A stretch of DNA of 28,203 nucleotides from Allobaculum fili (GTDB lineage: Bacteria; Bacillota_I; Bacilli_A; Erysipelotrichales; Erysipelotrichaceae), in the NCBI RefSeq assembly GCF_020969955.1, contig NZ_JAHDSX010000032.1:1-28203 (forward strand), written 5' to 3'. Numbering within the stretch: the first letter of the stretch is position 1; the number at the start of each line of letters is the position of its first letter. The notes under the pieces are model-generated. The model did not search any database. It had not been told where the DNA came from and saw only the letters and a program-made list of their open reading frames with translations. The position numbers were made by a program, and so were the translations under genes. Shown here piece by piece: positions 125 through 23,360 of the stretch.

Positions 125-811
125 TTATAGGGGTATATACAGATTCTGCCTGGAAAACGGAATCTCCTGGTAATTAAAATTCTTCTCCAGCCTGTACAGC
201 GGAAGACCGAGAATGGTTTTCATGCAGGTAATATGAGCCAGAAGAGATGGTGAAATGTAGCTGTGCGGGATCAGCTTAGGATTGGGATTATCCCCGCTGA
301 AAATCACAGTATCACCGTTTTCGTCTGTCCAGGCGAAGTGATGAATAATGGTTCTGCTGTTATAAATCTCTGCGCACTGGTATCCAATTTCTTCACAGAT
401 TGTCGGAGCAAGTTCTCGGCACTGGTCTTTGATTTCCAGAAATCGGGGATCATCAGGATAAACATCCTTTTCTCTGACTGGGAGCTGATCAATCGACTCC
501 CGTCTGCTTTTTCTCTTCTTGCGGATATGCTCCTGAATGACAGTGTATTGCTCCGCTTCTTCTTCGGCAGCCTGCTTCTCCAGCTTTTCCTGCTCTGTTG
601 GTTCTGTCTCAAAGAGGGGGATCTGTTCAGTCGAAGAGTCGTAAATCATGTTGGTAAGACGGCGTTTCTTGCTGAGAATTTGCCGGATCAGATAGATCAG
701 ATCTTCGGTATTGGACCGAAGTTCTTCTTCTGTCAGGCTGTTGAGCAGCTGATTCAGCTCACTGGTATCAAGGTCATCGGCATAAATCAGGGAATCGAGT
801 TGGACATTCAT
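125..811 (-). pseudogene. tnpC: IS66-family transposase TnpC (Orf3), 3'-truncated (about 225 of the ~500 codons expected)
   Basis: The 228-aa ORF lies directly downstream of IS66 tnpA/tnpB. It has an acidic/coiled N-terminus and the basic patch RKKRKSRRES. The core KLIPHSYISPSLLAHITCMKTILGLPLYRLEKNF matches the IS66 TnpC pattern I recall (..ASPSLLA....K....PLYRQE..F). Similarity breaks after FSRQNL and a stop follows at 125-127. Confidence 0.75.
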
Positions 812-910
812 GCTTTAAGTATAGGAAAAACCGATATCTTCATCCAACGATCTGCCCGAGAATAACCTTTTATAATAAGCGCTATAAACTGATAAATAAC
901 AGTGAAACGC

Positions 911-1261
911 TTAAATATATATAGGATAAGATTTTTTAAATACTGTTCCTGTGTCGACACATAGCCCGTTCAGCAGCCACATCAGCTGCTGCTCTGTAAC
1001 AGAAACCATGCCATCTCCTTCCATACGCCAGTCAAAATGCCCTTCGTTGAGGATTTTAGAGAACATCCAGAATCCTGTGCCGTCGTAAAACAGGCACTTG
1101 ATCCGGTCTTTATGACGGTTGGTGAAGATGTACAGCGACTGATCGCATGGATTAATGCCAAACTGATCAGCTGCGTACTGACAAAGTGTGTTGATGCCTT
1201 TTCGAAAATCAATCGGCTCTTTGGCAATATAGATGCCGGATATATCAAATGAGAGATTCAT
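911..1261 (-). CDS. tnpB: IS66-family accessory protein TnpB (Orf2)
   Basis: 116 aa. PIDFRKGINTL...LYIFTNRHKDRIKCLFYDGTGFWMFSKILNEGHFDW is the hallmark IS66 Orf2 pattern. The ATG lies 4 nt after the tnpA stop (TAAaaccATG). Confidence 0.9.
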   Translation of the reverse strand: MNLSFDISGIYIAKEPIDFRKGINTLCQYAADQFGINPCDQSLYIFTNRHKDRIKCLFYDGTGFWMFSKILNEGHFDWRMEGDGMVSVTEQQLMWLLNGLCVDTGTVFKKSYPIYI

Positions 1262-1812: not shown

Positions 1813-2451
1813 ATGAAATTCAAAAGAAAGATTTTTTCCTCTGCTTTATCTTCGTCGCTGATTCTTGGGGTGATCGGAGGAATTCCGATTTCTGCAAACG
1901 ATTATTCTATCACCGAAGAAAAAGCTGATAGCTATTCAGTTTCACTAACAGAAAATTCCATCGTCGAGTCGATCGAAGTTAATGTCAACGGAGATACAAT
2001 TTTCGTCAATCGTGAAACATTCGAAAACAATAATGTACTCCTGACTATTACAGAAGATGGAGTAACCCAGACATTCAACCAAACTGGTTCTTATGAACTT
2101 CTCCTTCAAGCAGTAAAAGGAGAGCTAAGAGCGAATGATGGACGCTTCTATGGACGGGTAGCAGGGTATAACTACAGGTATATGAAGGCTGTCTCTTCAA
2201 CCGATTACCTCACTCCGCAAAACAACACATATTCAACTATCCTAGCTGCGGTTTCTGGTACGCTTGGATATCTAGGTTTACCTGGTTCAACAATCACTGG
2301 CATAGCCTCTATGATCTTCGCAGCAAATGCTGCACCTGTAGAGACGAAAATTGTCACAACGCGACATTGGTATGAGATGACGGAGAAATCTTCGGGTGGA
2401 TTCATCGGTTATCATTGTGAGTGTTCGGTTATCATTGTGAGTGTGTGGTAG
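1813..2451 (+). CDS. Secreted hypothetical protein (signal peptide); 3' end frameshifted by a 20-bp duplication
   Basis: RBS AAAGGAGAAAGGT precedes the ATG. The N-terminus MKFKRKIFSSALSSSLILGVIGGIPISA/ND is a typical Sec signal peptide. I recognise no family. Confidence 0.7.
   Translation: MKFKRKIFSSALSSSLILGVIGGIPISANDYSITEEKADSYSVSLTENSIVESIEVNVNGDTIFVNRETFENNNVLLTITEDGVTQTFNQTGSYELLLQAVKGELRANDGRFYGRVAGYNYRYMKAVSSTDYLTPQNNTYSTILAAVSGTLGYLGLPGSTITGIASMIFAANAAPVETKIVTTRHWYEMTEKSSGGFIGYHCECSVIIVSVW
2405..2444 (+). repeat. Exact 20-bp tandem duplication (TCGGTTATCATTGTGAGTGT x2)
   Basis: Positions 2405-2424 and 2425-2444 are identical base for base. The length is not a multiple of 3. Confidence 0.97.
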
Positions 2452-2550
2452 GTACTTATGTTCGTAATTCTTCTGGTGGATGGACGTATCTTGGTTCGCA
2501 GACTGGGGAATTCGATAGTTTTGATGTATATTAACATCATCATAACGATT

Positions 2551-2862
2551 ATGTCGAACAAAAAGATTAAACAAACTTTTGTCTCTCTACTCATCTTAGC
2601 GACTGGTTTCCTGCTTCTTGCCAATGGATTTCCAAATAGTGGGATCGCTATAATCTTAACAGCCCTGACGTTAGCTTTATCTGTATGTGTAAAATCAACT
2701 AACAAATGGGGGTTGTGTTTGATTGTTGCTGCAGTTGTCGGAGTAGCGATAGCTCTTTTGTATTTTTTAAGTCACCATGACTGGATCAGCTCCTTAGCGT
2801 GCATTATACCAGCGGCTATATTGTCGGATATTATAGTGAAATCTTTCCGAAAGCTTAAATAA
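2551..2862 (+). CDS. Small polytopic membrane protein (103 aa, 3-4 predicted TM helices)
   Basis: MSNKKIKQ is followed by hydrophobic stretches (FVSLLILATGFLLLA, GIAIILTALTLALSV, GLCLIVAAVVGVAIALLYFL, LACIIPAAILSDIIV). The upstream part of the 134-aa track ORF overlaps the ancestral 3' end of the preceding gene. Confidence 0.6.
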   Translation: MSNKKIKQTFVSLLILATGFLLLANGFPNSGIAIILTALTLALSVCVKSTNKWGLCLIVAAVVGVAIALLYFLSHHDWISSLACIIPAAILSDIIVKSFRKLK

Positions 2863-2929
2863 TGCAGATACCTACAAACAATTGAGCCCTGATGTATTTG
2901 GACATCGCTTAGAGCGCTCACAGTAAAAT

Positions 2930-2977
2930 AAGCCCATCAGGCAGACAGGATCAATTCCTGCCATACCTGATGGGCTT
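2930..2977. terminator. Bidirectional rho-independent terminator (12-bp stem)
   Basis: AAGCCCATCAGG (2930-2941) pairs with CCTGATGGGCTT (2966-2977). It is flanked by AAAATA upstream and TTCATATT downstream, between a plus-strand and a minus-strand ORF end. Confidence 0.6.
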
Positions 2978-2986
2978 TCATATTGT

Positions 2987-3240
2987 CTAGTGAAATGTTC
3001 CCCAGGGCTCAAAGTTTCTTCCAGCAGAATTTGCTTTGCCGCAAGCCATCCAGCGTCTGGTGTGAGTTGTTGCAGAGATCCAGGAGATCCAGACATAACC
3101 TTCACGGATGACATAGCCATCATAATTGACACTCATGCCTTTGTTGTAGGTCAGCCCGGTATCCTTGCCGGCAACAGAAGGTGCTTCTCTAATCTTGATT
3201 GCATCAACAGTAACCCTTGCTGGTGTCAACTGAAAAATTG
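2987..3240 (-). pseudogene. Relic of a phage-type endolysin cell-wall-binding domain (SH3b / SH3_5-like), no catalytic domain
   Basis: VTVDAIKIREAPSVAGKDTGLTYNKGMSVNYDGYVIREGYVWISWISATTHTRRWMACG follows the bacterial SH3 pattern of Gram-positive lysins (..YD.....DGY.WISY.....RRY.A). The N-terminal 60 aa of the track ORF run through a hairpin and look non-coding. Confidence 0.55.
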
Positions 3241-3332
3241 CAGTTTGATCAATTGAAAAGTTGCAGCTGGCATCTCCGGTCAGCAGGACAAAATACGCCA
3301 ACCTCAAGTGTTCTGTGAACGAAACAGATGTA

Positions 3333-3387
3333 GGGCCTCCCCCTGCCGGTTCTCTGCGATCTTTCTCGATCCGGCAGGGGGAGGCCC
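3333..3387 (+). other. Orphan GC-rich perfect 17-bp inverted repeat (terminator-like hairpin)
   Basis: GGGCCTCCCCCTGCCGG (3333-3349) and CCGGCAGGGGGAGGCCC (3371-3387) are separated by a 21-nt loop and followed by GGCTTTTGT. The hairpin sits exactly between the two gene relics. Confidence 0.6.
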
Positions 3388-3425
3388 GGCTTTTGTACTT
3401 AACCTTGCCAGCTGCCTTATTGCTG

Positions 3426-4040
3426 TCAGTCAAGTATAAAAGGAGGGTTTCCCAGCACGATGTCCCACTTTTTTTTGGCCATATCTATTCCTTCTTTCCT
3501 TTCAATCTCTTTGTATCGAATCGTTTTTTTCGCTCTCCACTTTCGTACTTTACAAAGTGGAGCTTTTTCTTCTGGTTTGTCTTCAATATCGAAAAGGGTC
3601 ATCTGCTCAAAGACTGGCTGCGGAACACCCAATGGGACAGTTCCGTTCAATCCGTCCATTTGCCAGAAATTCCAAGTGATGATGTTTGTGATGGCAGTAA
3701 GAAGATCTTTATCGGCTTCTTTGTTCCAAACGCTTTGGTAGTAATCAACAAATGTCATGAGCAGGTTGATGCGGCCAATGAGTAAATTGTCGCCCTGGTA
3801 CTCATAGCCGTACACACTTTCATAGGCACGCGTCGCCCACTTGATCCAGTCTTCTTCATTGTCTGTGTTCTCCGTAACAACCCGCAGCTTTCGATCAAGA
3901 ATCCCGATTCGTTCTTCAACAGGAATGATCTGTCCGGTTGACGCGTTGTATCGGGATACAATGAATGGTGCTTCGCCACAGGTGATTTCAAGAACTGATC
4001 GGTCAACCGTGTTGGCAGGGTGGTTGAGTGCTGATCGACC
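3426..4040 (-). pseudogene. N6-adenine DNA methyltransferase fragment, truncated at both ends
   Basis: My own translation of the open frame gives ..VLEITCGEAPFIVSRYNASTGQIIPVEERIGILDRKLRVV...YGYEYQGDNLLIGRINLL...WNFWQMDGL...WDIVLGNPPFILD*. It contains an AdoMet-binding-like motif and the NPPF catalytic motif. The frame opens right after a stop (4041-4043) with no ATG, and it stops 4 codons after NPPF. Confidence 0.6.
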
Positions 4041-4148: not shown

Positions 4149-4667
4149 CTATTGATAACCAAATACTTCGCAAACAAACGCATTCATTTGCGAACATATT
4201 TCCAGATTTCTGAAGTCTTCGTATGGATTGTTCACGACAAACAGGGCTCCGTTCTCTCCGTTGGGTTCGTAGTCACGGTTCATCATTCGCTCGATTTTCT
4301 GATCCACATCGAACGGATTAAAAACAGAGTTGTCCATATCGGCAAGACCGAGGTTGTTAAGCATCATCCAGAACCAAGTTGGAGTCTGGTCTCCGGCCTC
4401 CCAGTCATACAATCGACTTTCGGTTTTCTGTGCTACTCCGATGAGCAGCTCCAGAACAGAACAGTCCTCATCTGGATAGTCCGATAAATCTCCATTAAAT
4501 AAATATCGTAAATAAATACCATCTTGGGCGCGGTTGCGATCTCGTTCAATCGGAAATCTATCGAACTTTTTGTTCTGTAAATAAAAGAATAGGTTGGAAT
4601 AGTCCCGTTCCAGATGCAACCGATTCGGAACTAAACCAACCAAATACTGAAAATACTCCTGACTCAA
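4149..4667 (-). CDS. Hypothetical protein, paralogue A1 (172 aa, TTG start)
   Basis: RBS GAAGGAGG lies 4 nt before the TTG. It is collinear and gap-free with paralogue A2 at 5778-6296. No motif recognised. Confidence 0.7.
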   Translation of the reverse strand: MSQEYFQYLVGLVPNRLHLERDYSNLFFYLQNKKFDRFPIERDRNRAQDGIYLRYLFNGDLSDYPDEDCSVLELLIGVAQKTESRLYDWEAGDQTPTWFWMMLNNLGLADMDNSVFNPFDVDQKIERMMNRDYEPNGENGALFVVNNPYEDFRNLEICSQMNAFVCEVFGYQ

Positions 4668-4689: not shown

Positions 4690-5322
4690 TTATTGATTCT
4701 GATACCGCTTCGACTCAGGAATATGGTCAGCATACTCATCATATGATTCCATAATCTTCCCGATGGCGAAGTTTTGGCCAAGATCGGGATTCCGGATATA
4801 CATGGAAGCATCCATACAGTCCTGAAGGAACGCATCCAGATTATCTTTTCCGAACAACTCATTCGCGAAGTCCCTATCAATGATGAAATCATCCTCATCG
4901 ATGAAGACCTCATCGGTGGTGATCTTGATCTCCTCATAGATGGGCGCATCATCCCTATAGTCATCCGCAATAATATCCCGGATCTCCACCCGATGTGGAA
5001 CGCTTTGGTCGTTTTCGGGAGGTTGTGTTTTAGGCATCTCCGTCACTTGTTTGCTCTTGGCTGAATAGTCAACGACCTGAGCTTTTGTTTTTGTTTCGTT
5101 CGGTTCCAATGACACAACCTCATCGGACTGACTATTCTCCTGCAGATCGGTTGTAATCTCCGTTTCTTCCGGTTCGTTAGAACCTTCGTAATACTGAATG
5201 ACCTCGTTAACCTGCTCACTGCCAATCTTACTATATTTATCTTTTATAAAGTAATTTGTCAGCCAATAGCTGATCGTACCTCCTGCCAGCAAACCCAGTA
5301 GAAATGAAGTAACTTTGTTCAT
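4690..5322 (-). CDS. Membrane-anchored, highly acidic hypothetical protein (210 aa)
   Basis: ATG 5322 is preceded by TAAGGAGAG. There is one N-terminal TM helix (VTSFLLGLLAGGTISYWLTNYF), then a D/E-rich region. The track ORF start at 5382 lacks an RBS. Confidence 0.65.
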   Translation of the reverse strand: MNKVTSFLLGLLAGGTISYWLTNYFIKDKYSKIGSEQVNEVIQYYEGSNEPEETEITTDLQENSQSDEVVSLEPNETKTKAQVVDYSAKSKQVTEMPKTQPPENDQSVPHRVEIRDIIADDYRDDAPIYEEIKITTDEVFIDEDDFIIDRDFANELFGKDNLDAFLQDCMDASMYIRNPDLGQNFAIGKIMESYDEYADHIPESKRYQNQ

Positions 5323-5335
5323 ATCTCTCCTTATA

Positions 5336-5602
5336 TTAAATTGTTCGCATTCGTACGTTTTCAATGATTTCCCCCTCAACATTCGGATCGATCAGGAACC
5401 CATCTCCGAATTCCGTTGGTCGGAGATCGACATAACAGTCTTTTCCTCCGTCTTTTTTATTGTCGATCCAACCAACAACCTGGCCGGCCTTCGTTTCGTC
5501 AAAGCCAAGTTCTCGATATACCGTGTTGAGGAATAGGAATCCGTCTCGGTGAAGTTTGTTGTTCAGCACCGATGTTTTGACCTTCAACCATTGCTCAACC
5601 AA
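5336..5602 (-). CDS. Small hypothetical protein; start uncertain, possibly 5'-truncated
   Basis: The frame is open back to a stop about 78 nt upstream of 5602, with no ATG and no SD. The track start is a TTG. The conserved-looking core is LNTVYRELGFDETKAGQVVGWI. The stop lies 13 nt before the next gene's ATG. Confidence 0.4.
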   Translation of the reverse strand: MVEQWLKVKTSVLNNKLHRDGFLFLNTVYRELGFDETKAGQVVGWIDNKKDGGKDCYVDLRPTEFGDGFLIDPNVEGEIIENVRMRTI

Positions 5603-5777: not shown

Positions 5778-6296
5778 TTACTCGTAGCCCGATACTTCAC
5801 AGACGAATGCATTCATCTGAAAGAAGATTTCCATTGTTCTGAAGTCTTCAGATGGATGGCTTACCACAAACAGTGCTCCGTTTGCGCCATTAGGTTCATA
5901 CGCACGGTTCATCATCCGTTCAATCTTCTCATCCGCAATACATGGATCGAATCCAGAATTATCCATACTGGAAAGTCCAAGATTATCGAGCATCATCCAG
6001 AACCACGTCGGTGTCCGGTCTCCAGCTTCCCAGTCGTACAGTACATTTTCAGTCCTTTTGGCGACTCCAATGAGCATTTCCAGAATTGAGCAGTCTTCAT
6101 CGGGATAATCTGATAAATCTCCATTGAATAAATATCGTAAATAGATCCCGTCCTGAGCCCGGTTTCGATCTCGGTCGATCAGATACTTATCGAACTTTTT
6201 GTCGTTCAGATAAAGAAACAGCCTGGAATAAACACGTTCCGGAAGCTGTCGATTCAGAACTGAACCAGCCAGATACTCAAAATACTCCTGACTCAT
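5778..6296 (-). CDS. Hypothetical protein, paralogue A2 (172 aa)
   Basis: ATG 6296 is preceded by AAAGGAGG plus 5 nt. By hand alignment it is 129/172 identical to A1, including an invariant 29-aa block RDRNRAQDGIYLRYLFNGDLSDYPDEDCS. Confidence 0.75.
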   Translation of the reverse strand: MSQEYFEYLAGSVLNRQLPERVYSRLFLYLNDKKFDKYLIDRDRNRAQDGIYLRYLFNGDLSDYPDEDCSILEMLIGVAKRTENVLYDWEAGDRTPTWFWMMLDNLGLSSMDNSGFDPCIADEKIERMMNRAYEPNGANGALFVVSHPSEDFRTMEIFFQMNAFVCEVSGYE

Positions 6297-6490
6297 TGCA
6301 GCCTCCTTTAGTTCGGGTTTATGGATGTACCCATCATACTGTCCAAAATTCCGGTAAAAACGTCTGATCGACGTCAAATAAAGCTTACCCATTTTCTTCC
6401 CTGTTTGATACGGCCTCTTTTTCCCTCTTTTTCCGCCAGTACTCCAATGCCAAGCTTCACTGTATATATTGAATAATATTAAATCATATT

Positions 6491-6507
6491 ATATATATAT
6501 ATATATA
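6491..6507. repeat. (AT)8 dinucleotide microsatellite in an AT-rich intergenic region
   Basis: atatatatatatatata was read directly from the sequence. It lies between the operon terminator (6538-6587) and the A2 start (6296). Confidence 0.95.
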
Positions 6508-6537
6508 ATAGTGAATTTGTTCATAAAATCACAGACT

Positions 6538-6587
6538 AAAAAAGCGATTCACAAAGTGACATACGCTGTCGTCCCGCTGTGAATCGC
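6538..6587 (-). terminator. Rho-independent terminator of the helicase-MoxR-VWA operon
   Basis: GCGATTCACA (6544-6553) pairs perfectly with TGTGAATCGC (6578-6587). On the minus strand it is followed by TTTTTT (6538-6543). It starts 13 nt after the VWA stop. Confidence 0.7.
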
Positions 6588-6599
6588 GAATGAGCTGAT

Positions 6600-8312
6600 C
6601 TAAAGCGCATCCAGAAGCGCCTGTGTTTGCGGAAGATCCAGATGCAGCGTATAGCCCCAGGGTGCTTCGATCGTTGGCGATGTAATCAGCCAGACTACGG
6701 GGATGCCCTGAGCCATCTCTTCGGGAGGAAACTGTGCGTAGCCGTCCGTAAAGATCAGAATCATTGCCGGAAGCTGCTCAAACAGTTCATTCATCCGATC
6801 AAAGATCGGCTCAAAGCTCGTTCCCCCGCCGCCCCGGACGGATAGAAATTCGATATCTTCGTATTTCGAAAACGGGATCGGGCGTGAAAGAAAGATATCG
6901 AAAAACGAAATGTACCCTTCGACGGAGTCAATCTGCTGGATCATGGATCGAATCTCATTAATGAATTCTTCCAGTTCCCATTCGAAGACGGAACCGCTGA
7001 CATCGACCACAACCCAGATGTTTTCGACCGCATTTCCGCTCAGATCGTCTAAATAGCCGGGCAGAATCGCCGGTCCCTTCATCCGCCGATCGGGTCTGGA
7101 AAAGGAATAGTCCGCAATATTGTGATGGAAAAGCTGACTGAGAATCGTCAGCCAGTCTACCTTTCCTTCGTCTTCCAGAGCTTTAATGTAGCGTTCCATG
7201 GTTCCAGGCAGAGAGCCGGTCTGTCTGGCCCATTCCGCTTCTTCTTCAATAGCTTTTGACCACTGAATTTCGAGTGAAGAGAAGTCTTCAATTTCTTTCC
7301 AGGCATCATGAGAATCCACTGCGGGATGATCGAATACTTCCATGAACGGGTCGTTCTGATGCATTACGGGCTTTCTGGTAGTCGATTCAACCTCAGACGG
7401 GATTTCGGGTGTGTTGTGCTGAAATGGCTGCAGAGCAGACGGTTCCTCTTCTTCCAGCTCTTCCTGAATTTCGGATTTACGCGAAGAATTCGAAAGCTCT
7501 GGATTTGAATTTTGAAGATTGGATTCTTTTCTGTTGCCCAGATTCGGTTTTCGAACCGATAGAATGCTGGAGGATACGTTTTGTTTTGGATCAGAAGAGG
7601 AATCTTCTTCGTCTTCTTCTGACTCCTCTTTTGAGGAGCTGTTTTCCTCTGGTCTGGATTCGTTTTGGACCGCTTGATCATCTTCCGTCTGATTATTACG
7701 GTCTATCGTCTGGTCCATTTCGTCGGAAGTACCCTTCTGGCTTTCTTCGTTATCCGACTTCCCTGCCCGCCCCCTCTGTTCAGTTTGTGAATCTTCGTCT
7801 TCGGGAGTCAAACCGCTGTCCGAAGAACTTTGCGAATCGAAATCCTTTGGAAGCTGATCGAGCAGCTGTTTATACACTTCTTCCGCGGTATGGACGCGTC
7901 CAGGAAGACCGTCTGGCGCGATGCACATCACCGGCTGATTTTCGAACAGAATGGTGTGGAGATGGAGCTCTTCAAGCGCTACGGAGTTCACAACGATATC
8001 GCAGGCAATTTGAAACAGATCAAAATTCATCGTTCCTGCCCGCAGCGGATGACCGAGCGCACAGTGCAGAATTTCATGAAGCAAAACGAATTCGAGCTGT
8101 TCATCATCGATTTCATCGACGAATTCCGGGTCAAAGAGAATCTGTTCCATGTTGGTCATAGCGGTTTTGCAGGGAGCAAAGGCAAAAGGCGTTCGCAGAA
8201 GCAGTCGGCCATAAAACGGAGTTTTCCCTAACAAAGACCTCCTGGCCAGCGTCAGACGGCGCGAGACGCGCATCCGCTGCTTTTTCAGGGCTTCGCGATC
8301 AGCTGTTTCCAT
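6600..8312 (-). CDS. HExxH zincin-like metallopeptidase domain + VWA domain protein (DUF2201_N/DUF2201-type MoxR partner), 570 aa
   Basis: The N-terminal domain carries LLHEILHCALGH. A ~160-aa acidic/Ser-rich linker follows. The C-terminal VWA fold has the MIDAS motif VVVDVSGS and ILIFTDGYA. The ATG overlaps the MoxR stop by 14 nt. Confidence 0.8.
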   Translation of the reverse strand: METADREALKKQRMRVSRRLTLARRSLLGKTPFYGRLLLRTPFAFAPCKTAMTNMEQILFDPEFVDEIDDEQLEFVLLHEILHCALGHPLRAGTMNFDLFQIACDIVVNSVALEELHLHTILFENQPVMCIAPDGLPGRVHTAEEVYKQLLDQLPKDFDSQSSSDSGLTPEDEDSQTEQRGRAGKSDNEESQKGTSDEMDQTIDRNNQTEDDQAVQNESRPEENSSSKEESEEDEEDSSSDPKQNVSSSILSVRKPNLGNRKESNLQNSNPELSNSSRKSEIQEELEEEEPSALQPFQHNTPEIPSEVESTTRKPVMHQNDPFMEVFDHPAVDSHDAWKEIEDFSSLEIQWSKAIEEEAEWARQTGSLPGTMERYIKALEDEGKVDWLTILSQLFHHNIADYSFSRPDRRMKGPAILPGYLDDLSGNAVENIWVVVDVSGSVFEWELEEFINEIRSMIQQIDSVEGYISFFDIFLSRPIPFSKYEDIEFLSVRGGGGTSFEPIFDRMNELFEQLPAMILIFTDGYAQFPPEEMAQGIPVVWLITSPTIEAPWGYTLHLDLPQTQALLDAL

Positions 8313-9411
8313 ACTTCTTTTTCCATTCCTTGTAGTAAGCGGAACTGATCATCGGCTTTTTCGTCGAATGAATCTGAAGCAGATCGTTGAACATGGACTG
8401 GGCAAAATCAGGCGGAAAATGCGATACATACGCAGCCAGATTATCCGCCTGCGTTACTTTTAGCGATGTTTTCCGGCTTTCCAGCTGCTTTTTCAGGGAC
8501 TGGCAGAGCGAAAAAAGATGACCGGACGTTTTGGGATACGTGCGGCATTCGCCTTTTAAAATCGCCTCCAGAGAAATGTTCAGTCCAAGCCCCTCACAAT
8601 ACGAAAGGAATTCCACAGCTGTATCGAGTCCAATTGCGGAAGCAATGAGTGCCACCATCTTCTTTGGCGGCTCGGACGGATATAGAGACAGCAGCTGGCT
8701 GACAAAAGTCCAGGTACGCGGGGATGGATAAGCGATGTCATTAATGCCTGGATCAGCGCAAAGCCGAGTCTGGTCCTGTTCCAGAAAGCCAATAATACGG
8801 GAATCGATTTGATTGGCTTCTGCCCATTTCTTCCAGTCGCGTACGCTTGGTTCGACCTGGAAATGGAGAAGACGCGAGCAGAGCGCTTTTGGCATCTGAA
8901 AAGCGACGGAGCGATCCGTTGTCCGGTTGCCGGCTGCAATGACCAGACAGTTGTCGGGCAGCTGATGCTCCCCTACTTTACGGTCCAGACACATCTGATA
9001 CGCTGCCGCCTGCATGGACTGCGGAGCGGCGGTGAGCTCATCGAGAAGCAAAATGTTAACGACATCTTCCGACGGATCCATCGCAAAGATTTTCGGCTTA
9101 AGCCAGAGGGCGCTTTCGCTGGCCGCATCGGCGACTGGAATACCGCGCAGATCGATTGGAGAAAAGAGAAGAAGACGAACATCCGTAACAACAACACGCT
9201 TGCCGGTCAGGTTTTCCACACGCTGGGCTGCCTGTCTTACGCCCTCGGATTTACCGATACCCGGCTTTCCCCAGAGAAAGACCGCTGGAACGGTATGCAG
9301 GGGCATTCCCAGTTCAATTGCGCGAATGTAAAGATCGCTCAGCCGCTCCACCAGCTCGCCGGTATAGAGCGCTGGCATTCCGCTGGATTTGTTATCGAGT
9401 TTTACAGCCAT
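8299..9411 (-). CDS. MoxR-like AAA+ ATPase (AAA_5 type), 370 aa
   Basis: Walker A is LWGKPGIGKS, Walker B is NILLLDELT, and sensor-1 is IAAGN. ATG 9411 is preceded by GGAGAGGA. An alternative ATG at 9528 would add a 39-aa Q/N-rich extension. The 488-aa track ORF overlaps the helicase gene and is unlikely. Confidence 0.85.
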   Translation of the reverse strand: MAVKLDNKSSGMPALYTGELVERLSDLYIRAIELGMPLHTVPAVFLWGKPGIGKSEGVRQAAQRVENLTGKRVVVTDVRLLLFSPIDLRGIPVADAASESALWLKPKIFAMDPSEDVVNILLLDELTAAPQSMQAAAYQMCLDRKVGEHQLPDNCLVIAAGNRTTDRSVAFQMPKALCSRLLHFQVEPSVRDWKKWAEANQIDSRIIGFLEQDQTRLCADPGINDIAYPSPRTWTFVSQLLSLYPSEPPKKMVALIASAIGLDTAVEFLSYCEGLGLNISLEAILKGECRTYPKTSGHLFSLCQSLKKQLESRKTSLKVTQADNLAAYVSHFPPDFAQSMFNDLLQIHSTKKPMISSAYYKEWKKKYGNS

Positions 9412-9550
9412 GCGTCGATCCTCTCCATTTCTATTTCTTTGCGTATAAGGTTGTGCTTCACTCTGGTTCACCGTCTGGTTTACCTGTTCGTTCTGATCGC
9501 GCAGAATCGGCACTTTCGTTGCCGGCATTTCAGCCAGCCTGCTTCTGCAA

Positions 9551-12500
9551 TCAGCTGTATGCCGCCTTTCTGGCCTCTTCTTTTGCCTGAGCTTCTTCTT
9601 CCAGAACGGCATCGATACGGGCCAGTTTTTCTTCGAGCTTTTCAATTCTGGCTTCGTGCGGGTTGCCTTTCGCCAGCTCCAGGTTTCCGTTTTCCGCGTT
9701 TTCGTTATAGCGCACAATCGCCTGTTCCGATTCGGTAATTCGATCGGACAGATGCGAAAGCGCATAGTCCAGACTCTGCAGCAGACCGGCTCCGTTCGAC
9801 GGTTTGACTTTCAGATCGTAACCATACGTCTTGTAGTGGCCATACAGCGTCAGTTCAAAGGCTCCCGGATCATAGTCGCTGGAATGGCTTGGGTTTCGAA
9901 CGATTAAAAACCCTTTGTAGTAGCCAATCTGTCTAGGAAAAGAGGTGTAGTACCAGTTATTGGAAAAGGCGCGAAGCTTGCTAAGAAGCTCATCGCCTAA
10001 CTCGTGACGCTCCTGTCGTGTCATGGGGCGATTCTTTTCCTGATACAGTTTGATATCCCGTTTCACGCGTCGAATGGCGTTTTGTTCCATCTTGATCTTT
10101 TCTGGCACCTGATCCACTTCCGCCTGAAGGTTTTGCAGCTGGCGCTGTCTCTGACGGGAGAGCGCCTTAGTTTTTTCCAGACGGTTCGCGGTTTCCACGC
10201 GTTCCTTGATCAGCGGATTGCCAATCGCCAGAGCTTTCAGTTCCGCGTAGCTCAGTACCGTATCCGCAATATCGTCCATGTCGCGGCTTTTGGAAGAGCC
10301 GGACAGGAAGGATCCGATAAAGCGCTGCTTGTTTTCGAGAAGCTGCCAGCTGTACGAGTCAAAGGTGCCTTCGGTGATATACCGGCAGATGAAGACTTCC
10401 GGCGAGGTATTTCCCTGTCGAATAATACGGCCTTCTCTTTGCACCATGTCCGCCGGTCTCCAGGGCACGGAAAGATGATGGAGAGCAACCAGCCGCTCCT
10501 GAATATTTACGCCGGTTCCAAGCTTTTCCGTTGAGCCGATAATGACTTTGATTTTGGCTTTGTTTACAGCCGCAAACAGCTTTTTGCGTGCCGCTTCGGT
10601 TGGCGCATCGTGAATAAAGGCTACTTCTTCCGGTTTAAAGCCGCGATCGATCAGCTGTTTTTTCAGTTCGTCGTAGACGTTGAATTCCTTTTTCGGGGTT
10701 CCGATGTCCGAGAACACAATCTGTGCCCGGTCCGGATACTGTTCCGCGATTTTTGCGATCTGATCGGCGCATGTGGAGATTTTCGACTGGGCGATTTCTT
10801 CTTTGGGAATATCGATGTCGAGCAGACGCAGATCGAGGGCACAGCGGCGTCCGTCATTGGTGATTTTGAGAAGATTATCGTCTTTCATCTTTACCCGATG
10901 CATACGAACCTGTTCGGTACGATCTGCCAGTACATCCAGATACGCTTCCTGAGAAGACGTCTTTTTGACCTGAATATCGGTATAGCCGCTAAATGCCGGA
11001 AGAAGATCTTCATGGGCGTCCGCGTAATGGAAGTCGCAGATGGTCGAAAAGAGCGACATGAGTTCCGGTAAATTGTGGAACGTGGAAAAGCGCGTCACTG
11101 GTCGCAGCGAAGATGCATCCACATCAACTTCAAAGTTAGTCTCACGCTGCGCAAATGTATTGATCCACTGGTCGAAGCTGGAAATCTGCAGATCTTCAAG
11201 CGCATCAGGCTGGAGATAGTTTTGCAAAACGAACAGATCCGCCAGCGAGTTGGTCAGAGGCGTGCCGGTCGAAAAAATCATGCGGTCGACGGTTTTGCAT
11301 TTCTCGACCATTTCCTTGCATTTGACCGCCCCTTCGGAATGAAGTCCGACGACATTATCGGCTTTGCAGAAGAGCGGGATGTTTTTGTATTTATGGACTT
11401 CGTCCACAAAGAGAACATCAAAATCCAGATCATCAAATCCCAGTCCGGGATTGGGATTTTCGCTCACCTTATCACGGTAGCGCTCGAGGGTTCGTGTCAT
11501 CGATTCGAGCTTGCTTTCCAGTTTGGCACGCATCGGTCCTCTTGTATTCAGCCAGCTCTGACGGACTTTCTGGATTTCCTCCTGCTGCATTTCCACCCAG
11601 TAAGAAGGCGTCATTTTAATGCGGTCAAAAATGGAATGCGGAATATAACACACTGTAAAATCCGATGTCCGGATTTTTTCCAGTGTCTCTTCTCGGTTTT
11701 TCGGTCGGAAATCCGCTGGCCCGATAGCGAGTATGTCATCTTCTGGATACAGAAGTTCATGCGCATCCAGAAATTCCTGATACACCTGGTTTGGCATTGT
11801 AATCAGAATGCGTTTGGCCAGACCGAGTCGATGCAGTTCATGCGCGCCGCAAATCATTTCGTACGTTTTTCCCGTTCCGACTTCATGGGCGAGCAGTACG
11901 TTTTCATCCGAAAGAAGGATTCGCGCGATCGCGTTGATCTGGTGCGGATACAGATGAATATCCGGGTTCAGATCTGGGAATTCGAGAAAGGTTCCGTCAA
12001 ATTCCGTCGTTCCATACGAAGAAAACTCTTCGTTATACGCCGTTTCGAGCTCTTCCATACGGTGGAGATCGGATTTGCACCAGTAAACAAACGCTTCAAT
12101 GATTTTCTGCTGCTTTTCCTGCGCTTCCTGCGTCTTTTCCTTGTTCAGAAAGGATTTCGTAACAAAGTCGCCTTTTTCGTAAACGACTTTTCGATCATAG
12201 ACTTTTACCGTTCGCGCATTCATCGTCTGTTCAATGATCTTCAAAGCGGAAATGTCCATGGTACCGTAGACCATTTCGTTCAGTACGGAAAATACTTCTC
12301 CGGATTTGAACTGAACGCGCCATAAGCCGAGCGTCGGTTCATAAATTACCGATCCTTCCATGAATACGCCCAGAAGTTCCTTAACGAAATCGGTATACAT
12401 TTCTTCTGGAATCCAGGTGGCTCCCAGCGTGATATGAATGTGTTCGATATCAATTCTGGGCGGCAGCTTGCGATCGAGCGCGTCCAGATTGGCCTGAAAA

Positions 12501-12874
12501 TAGCCCGGGCAGCGTTTCTCATAAGCATCGGCACGCATCCGTTTCTGACGGAGGTTTCCGTTCAGATAGCTTGCGGCCAGTACCCAGCCGTCACTGAGAT
12601 CGTATTCTTCCGAAATCTTCATATGATCGGGATCCTGGAAAATGCCGTGGCCGCGAAGACGTCCAATCAGCTCTTCGATGCTCAGGCCGGAAGCTTTGCT
12701 CATCCATTTGAGATCGACGCGTCCATTTTCACGAAGACTGCCGATCAGCGCATCCCCTGCAGATCCTTCTGGAATCTGTACGGAAGGATCTGGAATCTCT
12801 TCCTGGGCAGATGCCTCTTCTGACTCTTCCTCTGGATCCATATCATAAAAAAGATCCATTTCTTCATACTGCAT
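9551..12874 (-). CDS. SNF2/DExH-family helicase (1107 aa) resembling the helicase half of conjugative-element/phage methylase-helicase fusions
   Basis: Motif I is LAHEVGTGKTY, II is FVDEVHKYKN, III is STGTPLTNS and VI is QREGRIIRQGN. It has a long coiled-coil C-terminal tail. The first ATG is at 12874 (GGGGGAG lies 14 nt upstream). The track start at 12913 is a TTG. Confidence 0.85.
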   Translation of the reverse strand: MQYEEMDLFYDMDPEEESEEASAQEEIPDPSVQIPEGSAGDALIGSLRENGRVDLKWMSKASGLSIEELIGRLRGHGIFQDPDHMKISEEYDLSDGWVLAASYLNGNLRQKRMRADAYEKRCPGYFQANLDALDRKLPPRIDIEHIHITLGATWIPEEMYTDFVKELLGVFMEGSVIYEPTLGLWRVQFKSGEVFSVLNEMVYGTMDISALKIIEQTMNARTVKVYDRKVVYEKGDFVTKSFLNKEKTQEAQEKQQKIIEAFVYWCKSDLHRMEELETAYNEEFSSYGTTEFDGTFLEFPDLNPDIHLYPHQINAIARILLSDENVLLAHEVGTGKTYEMICGAHELHRLGLAKRILITMPNQVYQEFLDAHELLYPEDDILAIGPADFRPKNREETLEKIRTSDFTVCYIPHSIFDRIKMTPSYWVEMQQEEIQKVRQSWLNTRGPMRAKLESKLESMTRTLERYRDKVSENPNPGLGFDDLDFDVLFVDEVHKYKNIPLFCKADNVVGLHSEGAVKCKEMVEKCKTVDRMIFSTGTPLTNSLADLFVLQNYLQPDALEDLQISSFDQWINTFAQRETNFEVDVDASSLRPVTRFSTFHNLPELMSLFSTICDFHYADAHEDLLPAFSGYTDIQVKKTSSQEAYLDVLADRTEQVRMHRVKMKDDNLLKITNDGRRCALDLRLLDIDIPKEEIAQSKISTCADQIAKIAEQYPDRAQIVFSDIGTPKKEFNVYDELKKQLIDRGFKPEEVAFIHDAPTEAARKKLFAAVNKAKIKVIIGSTEKLGTGVNIQERLVALHHLSVPWRPADMVQREGRIIRQGNTSPEVFICRYITEGTFDSYSWQLLENKQRFIGSFLSGSSKSRDMDDIADTVLSYAELKALAIGNPLIKERVETANRLEKTKALSRQRQRQLQNLQAEVDQVPEKIKMEQNAIRRVKRDIKLYQEKNRPMTRQERHELGDELLSKLRAFSNNWYYTSFPRQIGYYKGFLIVRNPSHSSDYDPGAFELTLYGHYKTYGYDLKVKPSNGAGLLQSLDYALSHLSDRITESEQAIVRYNENAENGNLELAKGNPHEARIEKLEEKLARIDAVLEEEAQAKEEARKAAYS

Positions 12875-13379
12875 ATCCGAATCGTACGCTCCCCCTTTTC
12901 TTCTCTGGCACAAGCTTTCAAATCATCCAATCCAAAACGGTTTGCGGATTATGAATTTCGATCGGAATCGTTTCATCTCTGCATTGTTTAAATCGGATTC
13001 TCTCCTGCGCAATGCTTTATTTTCGCACGTTTTCCAGTAAAAAGGAAGACAAGGTACTCTTTCTCTGCTAACGGACTATTCGAAATTCTTCGATCGCGAT
13101 CCCCCAGTCAAAAAAAGAGCGGTTTTCATACGAAAGCAGAAAAACATTATTTCAATTTATTTTCGGAAATTGATTGCGGTGTTTCAGAAAGGCATGATGA
13201 AACACAGAAAAAATGAGACCGGATCGGACCTGCTGTATCGATCTCCCTATCGCATCCAGGCAAAGACATGAAATTTCATATCCGATCTGCCTGAACCGCT
13301 GCTTTGAACAAAGGAAAGGCTGATCGCCAGACAGGCATCTTCAGATCGTATTCGGTCATTCAGTGAAAGGAACTGCATC

Positions 13380-16797: not shown

Positions 16798-19700
16798 TTA
16801 TTTGGAAGATTTCAGTGTATCCAGCGTGTCTTTGGATGGCGCTTTGCGCAGTTTCAGCATTGCGTCATTCAGAGCTTTTGCGGGATCATCGAGCCCCTTC
16901 TGTGTTGTGGCAGACGATTTTGCGCTGTCTGCTTCTGTCTTCTTCTCTGCGAAAGTTGTTTTGGCGCTTTCGTTATGGAAGCTGGTCAGAGCGTTGAGGA
17001 TGGATGCGGCTTTATCCGTCGCCATCGTGATCAGCGTTTTGTCGAGCTGCTCTTCCGGATTTGCATCTACCCATTTGGCATGGAGTTCATGATTTGCAGT
17101 AACCGGAGCATCCAGATCAAACTTCTGTGTATAGTTCTCGTCTGTATACCAGCCTTCGAGAACTTTTCCTTCAGGTGCAGTAACGGTCGGGATAGTGACT
17201 TTTTCGTTATAGCGTACAGGTCGTGCCACAGTCGTATTCGGATCACCCGTATTGAACTTGATCGTATAAATGTTCGACCATTTCGCATAAAGCGTCAGAT
17301 CAGAATTTACAGGACCTGGTACGTAGCGGTCCCAGCAGGAAGCATCCGTAAACCAGCCGACCAGACGGTATCCTTCGGTTGGATGCGTGGCGTTCGCAGG
17401 CGGAGTATACGTGTCGCCTTTCTTAATCTGGACAGGATCGATTGGATTACCCTTTCCGGTATTGAAGGTGACAGTGATTTTTTCCTCATCTACCCATTTG
17501 GCATGGAGTTCATGATCTGCAGTAACCGGAGCATCCAGGTCAAATTTCTGCGTGTATTCCTTGTCGGTATACCAGCCTTCGAGAACTTTTCCTTCAGGTG
17601 CAGTAACGGTCGGTACAGTGACTTTTTCGTTATAGCGTACAGGTCGTGCGACAGTCGTATCCGGAGCACCCGTATTGAACTTGATCGTATAAATATTTGA
17701 CCATTTCGCATAAAGCGTCAGATCAGAATTTACAGGACCTGGTACGTAGCGGTCCCAGCAGGAAGCATCCGTAAACCAGCCGACCAGACGGTATCCTTCG
17801 GTTGGATGCGTTGCGTTTGCAGGAGGAGTATACGTTTCGCCTTTTTTAATCTGGACAGAATCAATTGGATTGCCCTTTCCGGTATTGAAGGTAATGGTTA
17901 CTTTCTCTTCAACAGGAGCTTCCCACTTCGCGTAGAGGGTCGTGCTTTCCGTGATCTTATCGGAAGCGAAGTTGAAAGTCTGTGTGAGTGCTTCGTCCTT
18001 AAACCAGCCTGCGAACGTATAGCCGTTCTTTGTGGGCGCGGTCGGCGCTTCAATCGTCGTGTGGTAATTGGCTGAAACAGCAGCAACATCCGATCCGCCA
18101 TTCGATTCGAAGGTGACCGTATACGAGTTGATCGTCCAATGCGCAGTCAGTGTGAGATCTGCAGTAATTAGCGTATTGAAATCGAATGCGGTATCAGAAC
18201 CAGCCGCAAACCAGCCTGTAAAGGTGTAACCAGTCTTTGTTGGAGCGGTCGGCGCTGTGATCTTCGTATTGTACTCTGCTTTCACCGTTGTCGCTTCAGA
18301 ACCGTTATCCGCATTCATCGTCACGGTATAGGTGTTAATCGTCCAATGGGCTGTCAGCGTGAGATCCGCAGTAATTGGCGTATTGAAATCAAACGCGGTT
18401 TCGGAATCCTCCGCAAACCATCCAGCAAAGGTGCAGCCAGTCTTTGTCGGTTCGGTCGGAGCAGTGATCTTTGTGTTGTAGTCTGCTTTAACGGTTGTCG
18501 CTTCAGAACCGTTATCCGCATTCATCGTCACCGTGTAGCTGTTAATCGTCCAGCGTGCCGTCAGCGTAACACTCGTGTCGATTTTCGTTGTGAAATCAAA
18601 GGCCGTGTCCGCTTCTGGAGCATACCATCCGTCGAAGGTATAGCCAGTCTTTTCTGGATCAGCAGGTTTATCGACAGGAGTTCCTGGATCAATAGTTTGA
18701 GAGGTTGCCGTACCGTCTACATCGAATGTCACGGTAACTTTCTCAACCAGTCCTTCAACAGCCGTATCTAACGCTGCCTTAGCTGCATCCACGCTGTTGT
18801 CTCCCGTCTGATAAGCGGCTGGATTTGCAGCAGCAGCTTCCGCTTTTGCGAGTGCGTCCTGCATAGCCTTCCAGGAAGCGGCAGTGTAAGCATCTTCAGA
18901 TTTTGCTTTTGCTGCTTCAATCGAGGCATTCAAATCCGTCTTATCACTTGGCGAGAAGAATTTTACTTCTGCCACGGTTGCCGTCGTGTTCACAGGCTGA
19001 GACTTTCCTCCAGTGGCTTTAATCACCAGATTGACGTAACGAGCGTGAACTGGGGTGAAGTACATGTTGCGGTACTGGTCGCGCGTTTCATTGCTGAAAT
19101 ACGCCTCATTGCCATCGACTGCATGGTCAAACGCATAGGTACCTACGCATGTCATTTCTTCCTCAGATTCTCCCGCATATACTTCAACATTAAACAGGTC
19201 TCCGTTAATCGGAGAAGTGTACTGTCTGGGCAGGAAGCTGATCGCAAACAGATCTTTCGATTCGCCAAGGTCATAGAACAGGTTTCGATCTTTGGCAACC
19301 AGCTCGCTTGTACTGTCATCCGAGTGGTAATAAGACTGCGGATCATTGTCGAGTGTTTCCTCAATTCTGGAATTGCGGCCTTCTGTAGTCGAATTTTTCG
19401 TACTCTTAGAAGCAATGCCAGATACGCCTGTGATGGCTACACCAGTTGCATCCGTATCCTGAAGCACGTTGAGAACCGCCTGAACTGCAGCATTAATCTG
19501 TTCTACCGTAGAATCCACTGCCTCGTAAACTTCCTGATTGGCGGTAATGGATGTATTGAGAGCCTCATGATCTGCTGCGCTCATCAGATTTCTCTTGAGA
19601 ACATCTGCTGCCAGATCAAGTGCTTTACCAAGCGGCGCTTTATCGGTTGCTACCCACTTTGCGTACAGTGTCGTCTCTTCTTCGACGGTATCTGTACCGA

Positions 19701-23067: not shown

Positions 23068-23360
23068 GTTTTTCCTTTCTATATAGAGCCTTTTTTTCTC
23101 TTTTGAATCAGTCTTCTTAGTTGGAAACTGCCCGGAGTTCGCCAGTCTGTCACGAGTGACAATGGAATAGAAGAAGACCGATTCGGCCGCAAAAAGCACA
23201 ACTTATCCTTCGCCTTGCCCTGCGCAGGATGAAATGGCTTCTAGATTCTTTGCGGCGATTCTCCTTTTCAGGAGTCAGGAACTGATCCAGATCCGAAAAG
23301 CTTGCCCGGATTTCGGAACAGGACCAGCTGTAATCACGAAAAAGTAATCACTAGTGTAAT

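Follow-up and report, generated by a model that had tools for sequence, protein, structure and literature searches.

The stretch of DNA analyzed here, 28,203 nucleotides of a contig (NZ_JAHDSX010000032.1) from the gut bacterium Allobaculum fili, is called the window below. It carries three adjacent minus-strand genes coding for a DarB-type SNF2 helicase that stands on its own, a MoxR-like AAA+ ATPase and a zincin metallopeptidase fused to a von Willebrand factor A (VWA) domain; we call this trio the triad. We found that the linkage of the helicase to the other two genes is obligate in both directions and that the triad is resident in chromosomes. Its two parts, the helicase and the MoxR–VWA pair, appear to have been assembled from two early-phase toolkits of phages and other mobile genetic elements (MGEs). 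The reading that we favor, at not quite an even chance, is that the triad would be one chromosomal NTP-driven, DNA-guided machine in which the SNF2 motor and the AAA+/zincin part act on DNA-bound proteins, serving as a domesticated module against invaders.

Organization of the operon

The elements of the operon are as follows (window coordinates, here and below):

9551–12913, minus strand: maximal open reading frame (ORF) of the helicase; the TTG at 12913 marks the maximal ORF only
9551–12874, minus strand: standalone DarB-type SNF2 helicase, 1107 aa, likely start ATG 12874
9412–9550, minus strand: helicase–MoxR spacer, 139 nt, with an alternative in-frame ATG at 9528
8299–9411, minus strand: MoxR-like AAA+ ATPase of the N4 gp24 family, 370 aa (maximal ORF 8299–9765)
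8299–8312, minus strand: overlap of the MoxR stop and the VWA start, 14 nt
6600–8312, minus strand: zincin metallopeptidase fused to a VWA domain with a metal ion-dependent adhesion site (MIDAS), N4 gp25 family, 570 aa
6538–6587, minus strand: intrinsic-terminator-like hairpin followed by U6, outer stem 10–11 bp, closing the operon

The co-directional order of the three genes, their starts and stops, a ribosome-binding site, the 14-nt overlap and the terminator had all been described in a first-pass annotation made from the letters of this DNA, and all can be read off the sequence. The helicase ends with a TGA at 9551–9553; GGAGAGGA, the putative ribosome-binding site of the MoxR gene, sits just 5′ of the ATG at 9411. 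This MoxR start is supported over the longer reading frame, as orthologues have 365–370 aa. The MoxR TGA (8299–8301) overlaps the VWA ATG (8310–8312) by 14 nt, which implies that translation of the two genes may be coupled. The terminator hairpin (stem GCGATTCACA...TGTGAATCGC, then T6, at ∼6538–6587) starts 13 nt past the TAG stop of the VWA gene, with a predicted RNA fold of −21.1 kcal/mol (z = −2.4); a simple terminator scan missed it because its loop, ∼24 nt, is long. The same type of scan gave no minus-strand terminator-like site in the helicase–MoxR spacer. Upstream of the operon the promoter scan gave three promoter-like sites versus 6.6 expected from shuffles, none above chance, and Rfam and tRNA scans of the window returned no RNA family and no tRNA. 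Taken as a whole, this layout is that of an autonomous, co-directional unit, predicted to be co-transcribed and translationally coupled. An (AT)n dinucleotide run (window ∼6488–6512) lies just downstream of the operon terminator.

The catalytic motifs quoted in the first-pass annotation (AHEVGTGKT, DEVH, TGTP and QREGRIIRQGN in the helicase, GKPGIGKS and LLLDE in MoxR, HEILH, DVSGS and TDG in the VWA protein) are all present in the translations. They are not chance matches, since the motif residues are invariant across orthologues, 52 of the helicase, 23 of MoxR and 60 of the VWA protein. The alignments thus show what should be three intact enzymes held under purifying selection.

Linkage of the three genes

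In order to find other occurrences we scanned 185,579 species genomes, one per species (GTDB), with a MoxR alignment and two near-invariant peptide patterns. This MoxR-anchored scan yielded 80 loci, from which 62 Firmicute-type loci were then examined by tblastn. A helicase gene was situated directly upstream of MoxR on the same strand in 56 of the 62 (51 complete, five cut by a contig end); five loci could not be judged, and in a single one the helicase was missing despite sufficient room, so that linkage held in 56 of 57 judgeable loci. The VWA gene followed MoxR in all 59 loci that had room for it. In orthologous loci the median gap between helicase and MoxR was 11 nt, and 34 nt separated MoxR from the first aligned residue of the VWA protein.

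Anchoring the census on the helicase gave the reciprocal result. Among metagenome contigs, all 19 standalone helicases (1,083–1,327 aa, 36–45% identity) were followed by MoxR, and, on contigs that extended far enough, also by the VWA gene; the pair was found with 0 of 61 other helicase relatives, these being giant ORFs, genes cut by the contig or genes with too little downstream sequence. In IMG/VR 79 of the 80 helicase relatives were giant ORFs (median 3,718 aa) with no pair, while the sole match at ≥41% identity did carry it; six contigs examined from phage collections followed the same pattern. Concern that the adjacency might be confined to close relatives, raised in the first-pass annotation, proved unfounded: it is kept down to 33–38% identity. 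By these data the helicase of the triad would constitute a clade of its own, the mark of which is linkage to the MoxR–VWA pair.

The carriers include Allobaculum mucilyticum, the closest named genome (MoxR identity 71%), as well as Oscillospiraceae, Acutalibacteraceae, Lachnospiraceae, Ruminococcus, Coprococcus and Blautia. The distribution is patchy, ∼65 Firmicute species out of all the species genomes scanned.

The only MoxR–VWA locus that had room for an SNF2 helicase and did not have one came from a Lachnospiraceae metagenome-assembled genome (MAG; L059, JAZLGZ010000018.1, 1483–12449). An FtsK/SpoIIIE-family ATPase of 1,047 aa is encoded ∼5 kb upstream within the same co-directional cluster; a ThiF/E1-like protein (471 aa) and a transglutaminase-like protein (366 aa) are also encoded upstream in the same orientation. 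This locus may represent an alternative system built on the same pair. The presence of the FtsK/SpoIIIE-family ATPase where SNF2 is missing is a hint that a DNA translocase is a required partner.

The helicase as a DarB-type module

Pfam matches of the helicase itself were generic (SNF2-rel_dom, Helicase_C and ResIII). Comparison with PHROGs was more specific: phrog_10089, 'DarB-like antirestriction', was matched with E 1e-200, residues 36–1104 falling on positions 2106–3220 of a 4647-position profile. As the match spans nearly the whole protein, we consider it a complete DarB-type helicase module; it would correspond to the helicase part of the DarB-like methylase-helicase giants of phages and plasmids, minus the methylase. 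The ORF begins at the module boundary, and no methyltransferase Pfam match was found. With tblastn, residues 39–1092 align with DarB-type relatives at 29–38% identity.

The protein opens with a WH_1/DUF8437 region at its N-terminus, continues with the SNF2 core and ends in ∼250 aa that make up a separable C-terminal region; orthologues have precomputed Pfam matches to WH_1, DUF8437 and Helicase_dom, and motifs I, II, III and VI do not vary across the alignment. Separability of the C-terminal region is suggested by two loci (L008 9097–9954; L175 9178–9975) with an extra ORF of 265–285 aa between the helicase and MoxR genes. The ORF of L008 aligns to helicase residues 838–1092 at 27% identity, and that of L175 was grouped with it by position in the syntenic locus; thus, the C-terminal module can exist as a separate protein. 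A PDB sequence search with the helicase gave weak matches only, around motifs II/III of the SNF2 core, and no close solved relative.

The family is large. An exhaustive search produced 6,703 representative clusters (50% identity) at E ≤ 1e-30. The ∼55 top-scoring matches, after one 5,669-aa protein at rank 3, are 760–1,300 aa long; giants of ≥2,000 aa first appear at about rank 56 and predominate in what follows.

The MoxR and zincin–VWA pair

Judging from profile matches, the pair formed by MoxR and the protease–VWA protein belongs to the gp24/gp25 family of phage N4. MoxR matched phrog_1297 (ATPase) with E 3e-83 (residues 43–369 on profile positions 27–351 of 356), and the VWA protein matched phrog_1314 with E 4e-72. 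In Pfam the latter is recognized by DUF2201_N, a putative metallopeptidase (1.8e-34), and DUF2201, a VWA-like domain (7e-12). For MoxR, AAA_5 had been named in the first-pass annotation, whereas the best match is AAA_3 at 26.9 bits, just below the cutoff of 27.0. Homologues of MoxR number >2,500 and typically have the length cited above. Walker A (GxxGxGKS), the DE of Walker B and conserved arginines are invariant in the MoxR alignment; in the VWA protein the same holds for H79, E80, H83, H88, D333 and H335 and for the MIDAS residues D437, S439, S441 and D523. Sequence searches of PDB with the VWA protein and the MoxR profile found nothing, and an IMG/VR single-protein scan with MoxR returned no result. 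A near-identical VWA protein is annotated from 'uncultured Allobaculum sp.'.

Homologues were present in 831 phage records for MoxR and in 557 for the VWA protein, all at <42% identity (range 25–42%). In phage Pollock the genes are labeled 'ATPase, N4 gp24-like' and 'metallopeptidase, N4 gp25-like' and adjoin DNA-metabolism genes; in phage AR9 an 'AAA family ATPase' and a 'zincin-like protease fused to vWA domain' lie just downstream of an annotated early promoter. The genes gp24 and gp25 are among the 14 core genes of N4-like phages, and in N4 they are present in middle transcripts (PMC4193335). In group 2.2 jumbo phages the pair was noted as a 'MoxR and MPTase-vWA chaperone-cochaperone pair', for which Iyer et al. 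proposed a role in virion assembly (PMC7824862).

One could accordingly regard the pair as an assembly chaperone that matures or assembles a complex, with the helicase being a client or an unrelated passenger; such a role has been put forward for the virions of jumbo phages and for the tail of ATV, an archaeal virus. Maturation of complexes is indeed the classical role of MoxR/VWA proteins (PMC7824862; PMC7159879). However, structural or virion genes are not among the most frequent flank families listed for the triad; phages express the pair in the early or middle phase, from DNA-metabolism regions rather than from late structural modules; and strict linkage to a DNA translocase, in both directions, suggests an activity centered on DNA. 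We consider this explanation very unlikely.

Several observations concern the family in phages and other bacteria. The zincin–VWA family is often mislabeled 'HNH endonuclease' in RefSeq phages (e.g. NC_023719.1 gp576, NC_027381.1), and phrog_1314 bears the same label, which we rejected as an annotation artefact. The mislabeling probably arose because a homing endonuclease is inserted in the gp24-like/gp25-like region of some N4-like phages, e.g. Pollock, where it is located between a gp24-like fragment and an unnamed ORF upstream of the gp25-like gene. Pollock also has a Ppp-like phosphatase near the gp24/gp25 genes. A distant MoxR–VWA pair (31–34% identity) was seen in Alphaproteobacteria MAGs (L066–L075): five copies in CBDFKJ01, three in CBDFML01 and at least one in CBDFHH01. 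An extra 287-aa gene stands between MoxR and VWA in the seven of these loci where it was called, and the pair adjoins a phage DAM-like + GNAT-like gene and a ParB_N gene. These loci look like a multicopy prophage-like element.

Genomic neighborhood and inheritance

The conserved neighborhood consists of the three genes only; the next most common neighbor cluster occurs in 10 of 65 loci. The flank census covered 150 dereplicated flanking proteins from these 65 loci, with 123 different Pfam families, each of which matched at most two or three proteins except for four BspA-type leucine-rich repeat proteins. Most flanking genes are housekeeping ones (PFK, MetK, ClpP, Hsp70, FBPase, aminotransferases, short-chain dehydrogenases (SDRs)); integrase, phage structural and conjugation families are absent from the 25 most frequent flank families listed. 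PADLOC matches in the flanks were sporadic, with one or two members each (Card1-like CARF-PDDEXK, type IV restriction endonuclease, HEC-06, PDC-S26, PDC-S48).

Positions of the triad are stable at the level of genera. In two Allobaculum-type genomes (L002, L004) it occupies the same site as in the window, beside the DAPDH and HAD-hydrolase genes, a synteny that holds in three Allobaculum-type genomes. Identity of L002 and L004 to the window is 78–79% for DAPDH, 47–53% for HAD, 56–62% for the helicase, 68–71% for MoxR and 42–45% for the VWA protein; divergence of the triad (42–71% identity) is within the range of the flanking genes (47–79%). Loci of Acutalibacteraceae share the order metK, triad, SDR, TspO, sulfate permease, the triad always being between metK and SDR. 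The synteny in these two groups indicates that inheritance is mostly vertical within genera.

Downstream of the triad the window contains the following features:

5778–6392 and 4149–4667, minus strand: two phrog_4678 paralogues, flanking the two genes between them
5336–5602 and 4690–5382, minus strand: DUF6353/phrog_2152 fragment and phrog_4695 gene, between the phrog_4678 paralogues
3426–3815, 2987–3433 and 125–1261, minus strand: mobile-element debris, with IS66, endolysin and methylase pieces

The set flanked by phrog_4678 paralogues is a duplicated block of phage relics, missing from the syntenic Allobaculum relatives. The debris comprises an IS66 transposase fragment together with an intact-looking IS66 TnpB (Orf2), a C-terminal fragment of an endolysin SH3_5 and a fragment of an Eco57I-like N6-adenine methylase ending at NPPF. 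Elsewhere in the window (16798–23199, minus strand) there is a gene for a 2,133-aa secreted repeat-rich protein with tandem modules of ∼70 aa and motifs such as GYTFxGWF; it is likely to be a surface or adhesin-type protein.

The first-pass annotation had viewed these relics as a decayed mobile island, a typical setting of defence cargo. This part of it did not hold: L002 and L004 carry ordinary metabolic genes and no phage relics downstream of the triad, so the relics are a window-specific neighbor that stands outside the system. With relatives free of relics and flanks mostly of housekeeping type, we rejected the mobile-island context as evidence for defence. The same comparison bears on the idea that the triad itself is a decaying prophage remnant that has no current function, as the phage relics and IS66 fragments immediately downstream might suggest. 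Intact ORFs, catalytic residues invariant across lineages at 33–71% identity, a conserved operon architecture and the relic-free syntenic relatives all contradict it; the conservation data have effectively refuted this idea already.

A related explanation is that the triad is cargo, or a remnant, of an MGE with a role in counter-defence and establishment: the helicase would protect DNA entering the cell against type I restriction, in the manner of P1 DarB, and the MoxR–VWA pair would strip or degrade host restriction complexes or nucleoid proteins. The nearest relatives of both parts are indeed early-phase proteins of phages and plasmids (PMC5512222), phage relics adjoin the triad in the window, and on one IMG/VR contig the triad adjoins a phage-type sigma factor. 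On the other hand, integrase, phage structural, packaging and conjugation genes are not enriched in the 65 loci, and the triad, which the first-pass annotation had considered as a possible module of a conjugative element or phage, does not regularly lie within modules for conjugation or of phages. It was present in none of the phage genomes of the collection and in no PLSDB plasmid, where only distant MoxR proteins were seen; its chromosomal sites, set among housekeeping genes, show synteny and its inheritance there is vertical, and its helicase is devoid of the methyltransferase that accompanies it in all polyvalent relatives. We expect that this explanation is quite unlikely to be correct.

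In 22 loci, mainly from Oscillospirales, variable co-directional neighbors recur (L009, L015, L017, L018, L022, L028, L045, L053 and L055 are among the loci with such shuffled neighbors). They code for NinI/Ppp-like metallophosphoesterases, for SprT-like, M50 and S51 peptidases, for Lon-lid and FtsH-like AAA+ proteins, for an HD-domain protein of ∼1,000 aa and a Card1-like nuclease, and sometimes for an NAD-dependent DNA ligase. These may be optional accessory genes or members of an adjacent conflict islet.

Structure of the zincin–VWA protein

The VWA protein was modeled with AlphaFold2 from a 60-sequence alignment. Model confidence (pLDDT) was >90 for the protease and VWA domains and <50 for an insert between them (residues ∼160–330, window 7320–7835), which is acidic, rich in Ser, Glu and Asn and predicted to be disordered. 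The insert is present in Allobaculum versions of the protein (515–570 aa); in most lineages the protein has ∼390 aa, and a few others reach 490–567 aa. The VWA domain fold matches those of BatB, CLCA1, the Rea1/MDN1 MIDAS domain and the Ro60 vWA domain.

A fold search with the full-length model recovered VWA domains alone; therefore the N-terminal domain was modeled separately, using the first 250 residues of an orthologue (pLDDT 81.7). Its best matches in PDB were the minigluzincins selecase and jannalysin, at a weak E of 0.09; in BFVD it matched many phage metallopeptidase–VWA proteins, with E down to 2.7e-11 and TMq ∼0.6. SprT, Spartan and Wss1 were not among the PDB matches listed (the best 50 of 365 with E ≤ 10), and SprT/Spartan-like matches in BFVD were faint (E 0.1–0.2). 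A SprT/Wss1-like identity of the protease domain is thus not supported by these fold searches, although one orthologue (P0137) has a precomputed SprT-like Pfam match.

This result is of importance for yet another explanation, that of genome maintenance, by which the target would be the DNA of the cell itself: proteins that have stalled on it or become covalently trapped would be located by the SNF2 motor and removed by the AAA+/zincin part. In eukaryotes SPRTN/Wss1 act in such a way with p97/Cdc48 and a helicase. Stable positions among housekeeping genes, the lack of a toxic effector and the occasional SprT-like peptidase, NAD-dependent DNA ligase, HD or phosphoesterase genes nearby all fit this explanation, as does the Pfam match of P0137. 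The fold searches speak against it; in addition, the very patchy distribution argues against a general need in repair, and both parts of the triad come from phage families. Genome maintenance seems to us a rather unlikely role.

Proposed mechanism and role

Returning to the DNA-guided machine directed against invaders, we can outline how it might work. Proteins of the SNF2 family are established to track along duplex DNA. The SNF2 motor of the triad would load on duplex DNA and track, being the arm for DNA sensing and targeting; the MIDAS site of the VWA domain would dock onto a protein met on the DNA, or onto the separable C-terminal module of the helicase; a MoxR hexamer would provide the force for unfolding or remodeling; and the fused zincin domain would cleave the target. 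The net outcome would be a DNA-guided, split FtsH-like or Midasin-like device that removes and degrades DNA-bound proteins. Its role could be that of a domesticated conflict module acting on invading DNA, e.g. on proteins that enter together with phage or conjugative DNA or are bound to it.

A conflict role for the host is probably the most likely single option, with MGE cargo being less likely; we favor it because both parts are of phage ancestry, the distribution is patchy and neighbors of conflict type occur now and then. Going further, one could speculate that the triad provides a new kind of anti-invader immunity, a 'proteolytic restriction', in which an SNF2 motor, taken over from the DarB-type anti-restriction proteins of the invaders themselves, would steer a zinc protease driven by the AAA+ ATPase. 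Proteins carried on the incoming DNA, or protecting it, would be destroyed; replication initiators, terminal proteins or injected polyvalent proteins might be among them. In this specific form the proposal is doubtful.

A number of points weigh against a machine of this kind with a role in defence. None of the defence models searched (PADLOC, NCBIfam) matches the triad. The flanks are mostly housekeeping genes and no clear enrichment was found in a defence-island test of them, while positional stability at the genus level is atypical for defence cargo with its fast turnover. Neither a nuclease nor another obvious toxic effector is present in the triad. A physical interaction of the helicase with the MoxR–VWA proteins is suggested by gene linkage, and the peptidase activity itself by motifs, since the protease domain matches solved zincins weakly; finally, the virion-assembly role put forward for the phage pair by Iyer et al. 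(PMC7824862) is of a different nature. Stability within genera, flanks of housekeeping type and the absence of a toxic effector keep accessory clearance of DNA-bound proteins and counter-defence in play as explanations.

The triad joins two very widespread phage families, the DarB-type helicases (≥6,700 clusters) and the gp24/gp25 pair (>800 phage records). Their obligate linkage in bacterial chromosomes leads to a testable hypothesis for both, action on DNA-bound proteins, and a compact cassette of three genes is an easier experimental handle than polyproteins of 3,000–5,000 aa or large lytic phages. A role in defence, if true, would extend the known repertoire by an effector logic in which a protease is guided by DNA; a role in repair, if true, would be a bacterial analogue of crosslink proteolysis assisted by a helicase and an AAA+ protein. 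'Proteolytic restriction', if true, would give the N4 gp24/gp25 pair, core in N4-like phages and frequent in jumbo phages, a function in removal of DNA-bound proteins.

Comparison with known systems

The first-pass annotation had stated that the triad is not known to match a named defence system, and the searches with PADLOC and NCBIfam models agree. In PADLOC-DB v2.0.0 the VWA protein had 0 matches, MoxR had one weak match to DolB (E 1e-3), and the helicase was matched in its generic helicase lobe only. Scores with NCBIfam equivalogs of DISARM, Zorya, Dpd and the PLD anti-phage protein were all far below the cutoffs. That annotation had also listed outcomes that would undo its proposal, such as capture of the triad by an existing defence model; as a finding, the triad survives those of them that were computable.

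What the triad shares with DISARM DrmD, BREX BrxHI/BrxHII and Zorya ZorD is an SF2/SNF2 ATPase core, seen as partial hidden Markov model matches of 53–62 bits (for DrmD, 53 bits with NF038317 versus a cutoff of 610, and a partial PADLOC match of 62 bits). However, only the C-terminal helicase lobe of the triad helicase aligns, and the partner genes are absent: DISARM partner models, PLD and DUF1998 were not among the 25 most frequent PADLOC/Pfam flank families listed.

FtsH, Lon and Rea1/Midasin resemble the triad as functional analogues only, each combining an AAA+ motor with a zinc protease or with a MIDAS adaptor gripping the substrate. In the triad the activities are split over two polypeptides, with no membrane anchor, and are coupled to a DNA translocase; homology to FtsH, Lon or Rea1/Midasin beyond generic domains was not found.

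For N4 gp24/gp25 the protein families are the same as in the triad (phrog_1297, phrog_1314, DUF2201_N + DUF2201), with HExxH and MIDAS intact, and so is the gene order, the ATPase first and the protease–VWA second. Still, the triad is situated in Firmicute chromosomes among housekeeping genes rather than encoded by phages, and its pair is preceded by a DarB-type helicase, while the pairs of Pollock, phiFa, AR9 and phage G have none alongside.

With P1 DarB and the methylase–helicase dyad the triad shares the whole helicase module of ∼1,050 aa, homologous also in the regions that flank the SNF2 core. DarB-type methylase–helicases are polyvalent proteins of phages and conjugative elements that are delivered together with DNA (Iyer et al. 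2017, PMC5512222). The triad helicase differs from them in having neither the adenine methyltransferase (EcoKI/TaqI-like) nor LPD36, in its size (1,107 aa versus a median of 3,718 aa for the giant multidomain relatives) and in showing no linkage to genes for virions or conjugation. No paper describing a DarB-type helicase together with a MoxR/DUF2201 pair came up in the literature searches.

In its logic the triad is comparable to the vWA–MoxR ternary systems, which depend on NTPs and for which an action against invaders has been proposed (Kaur et al. 2020, PMC7159879; PMC12839542). What defines those systems is VMAP, iSTAND or FtsH as a third component, and most of the domains carried by their vWA proteins are caspase or trypsin ones (PMC7159879; PMC12839542). 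Like them, the triad has a MoxR protein, a vWA protein with a peptidase in the effector position and a conserved third component. In contrast to them, this third component is an SNF2 translocase and not VMAP, iSTAND or FtsH (a gene for an AAA–FtsH fusion was near the triad in only four loci); the peptidase, placed N-terminally, is a zincin, which those systems seldom have; the hosts are gut Firmicutes as opposed to multicellular actinobacteria and cyanobacteria; and the MoxR/vWA clade is the one of phage gp24/gp25. Within this comparison, the triad is a MoxR/vWA-centered, multi-component NTP-dependent system with a DarB-type SNF2 helicase as its third component.

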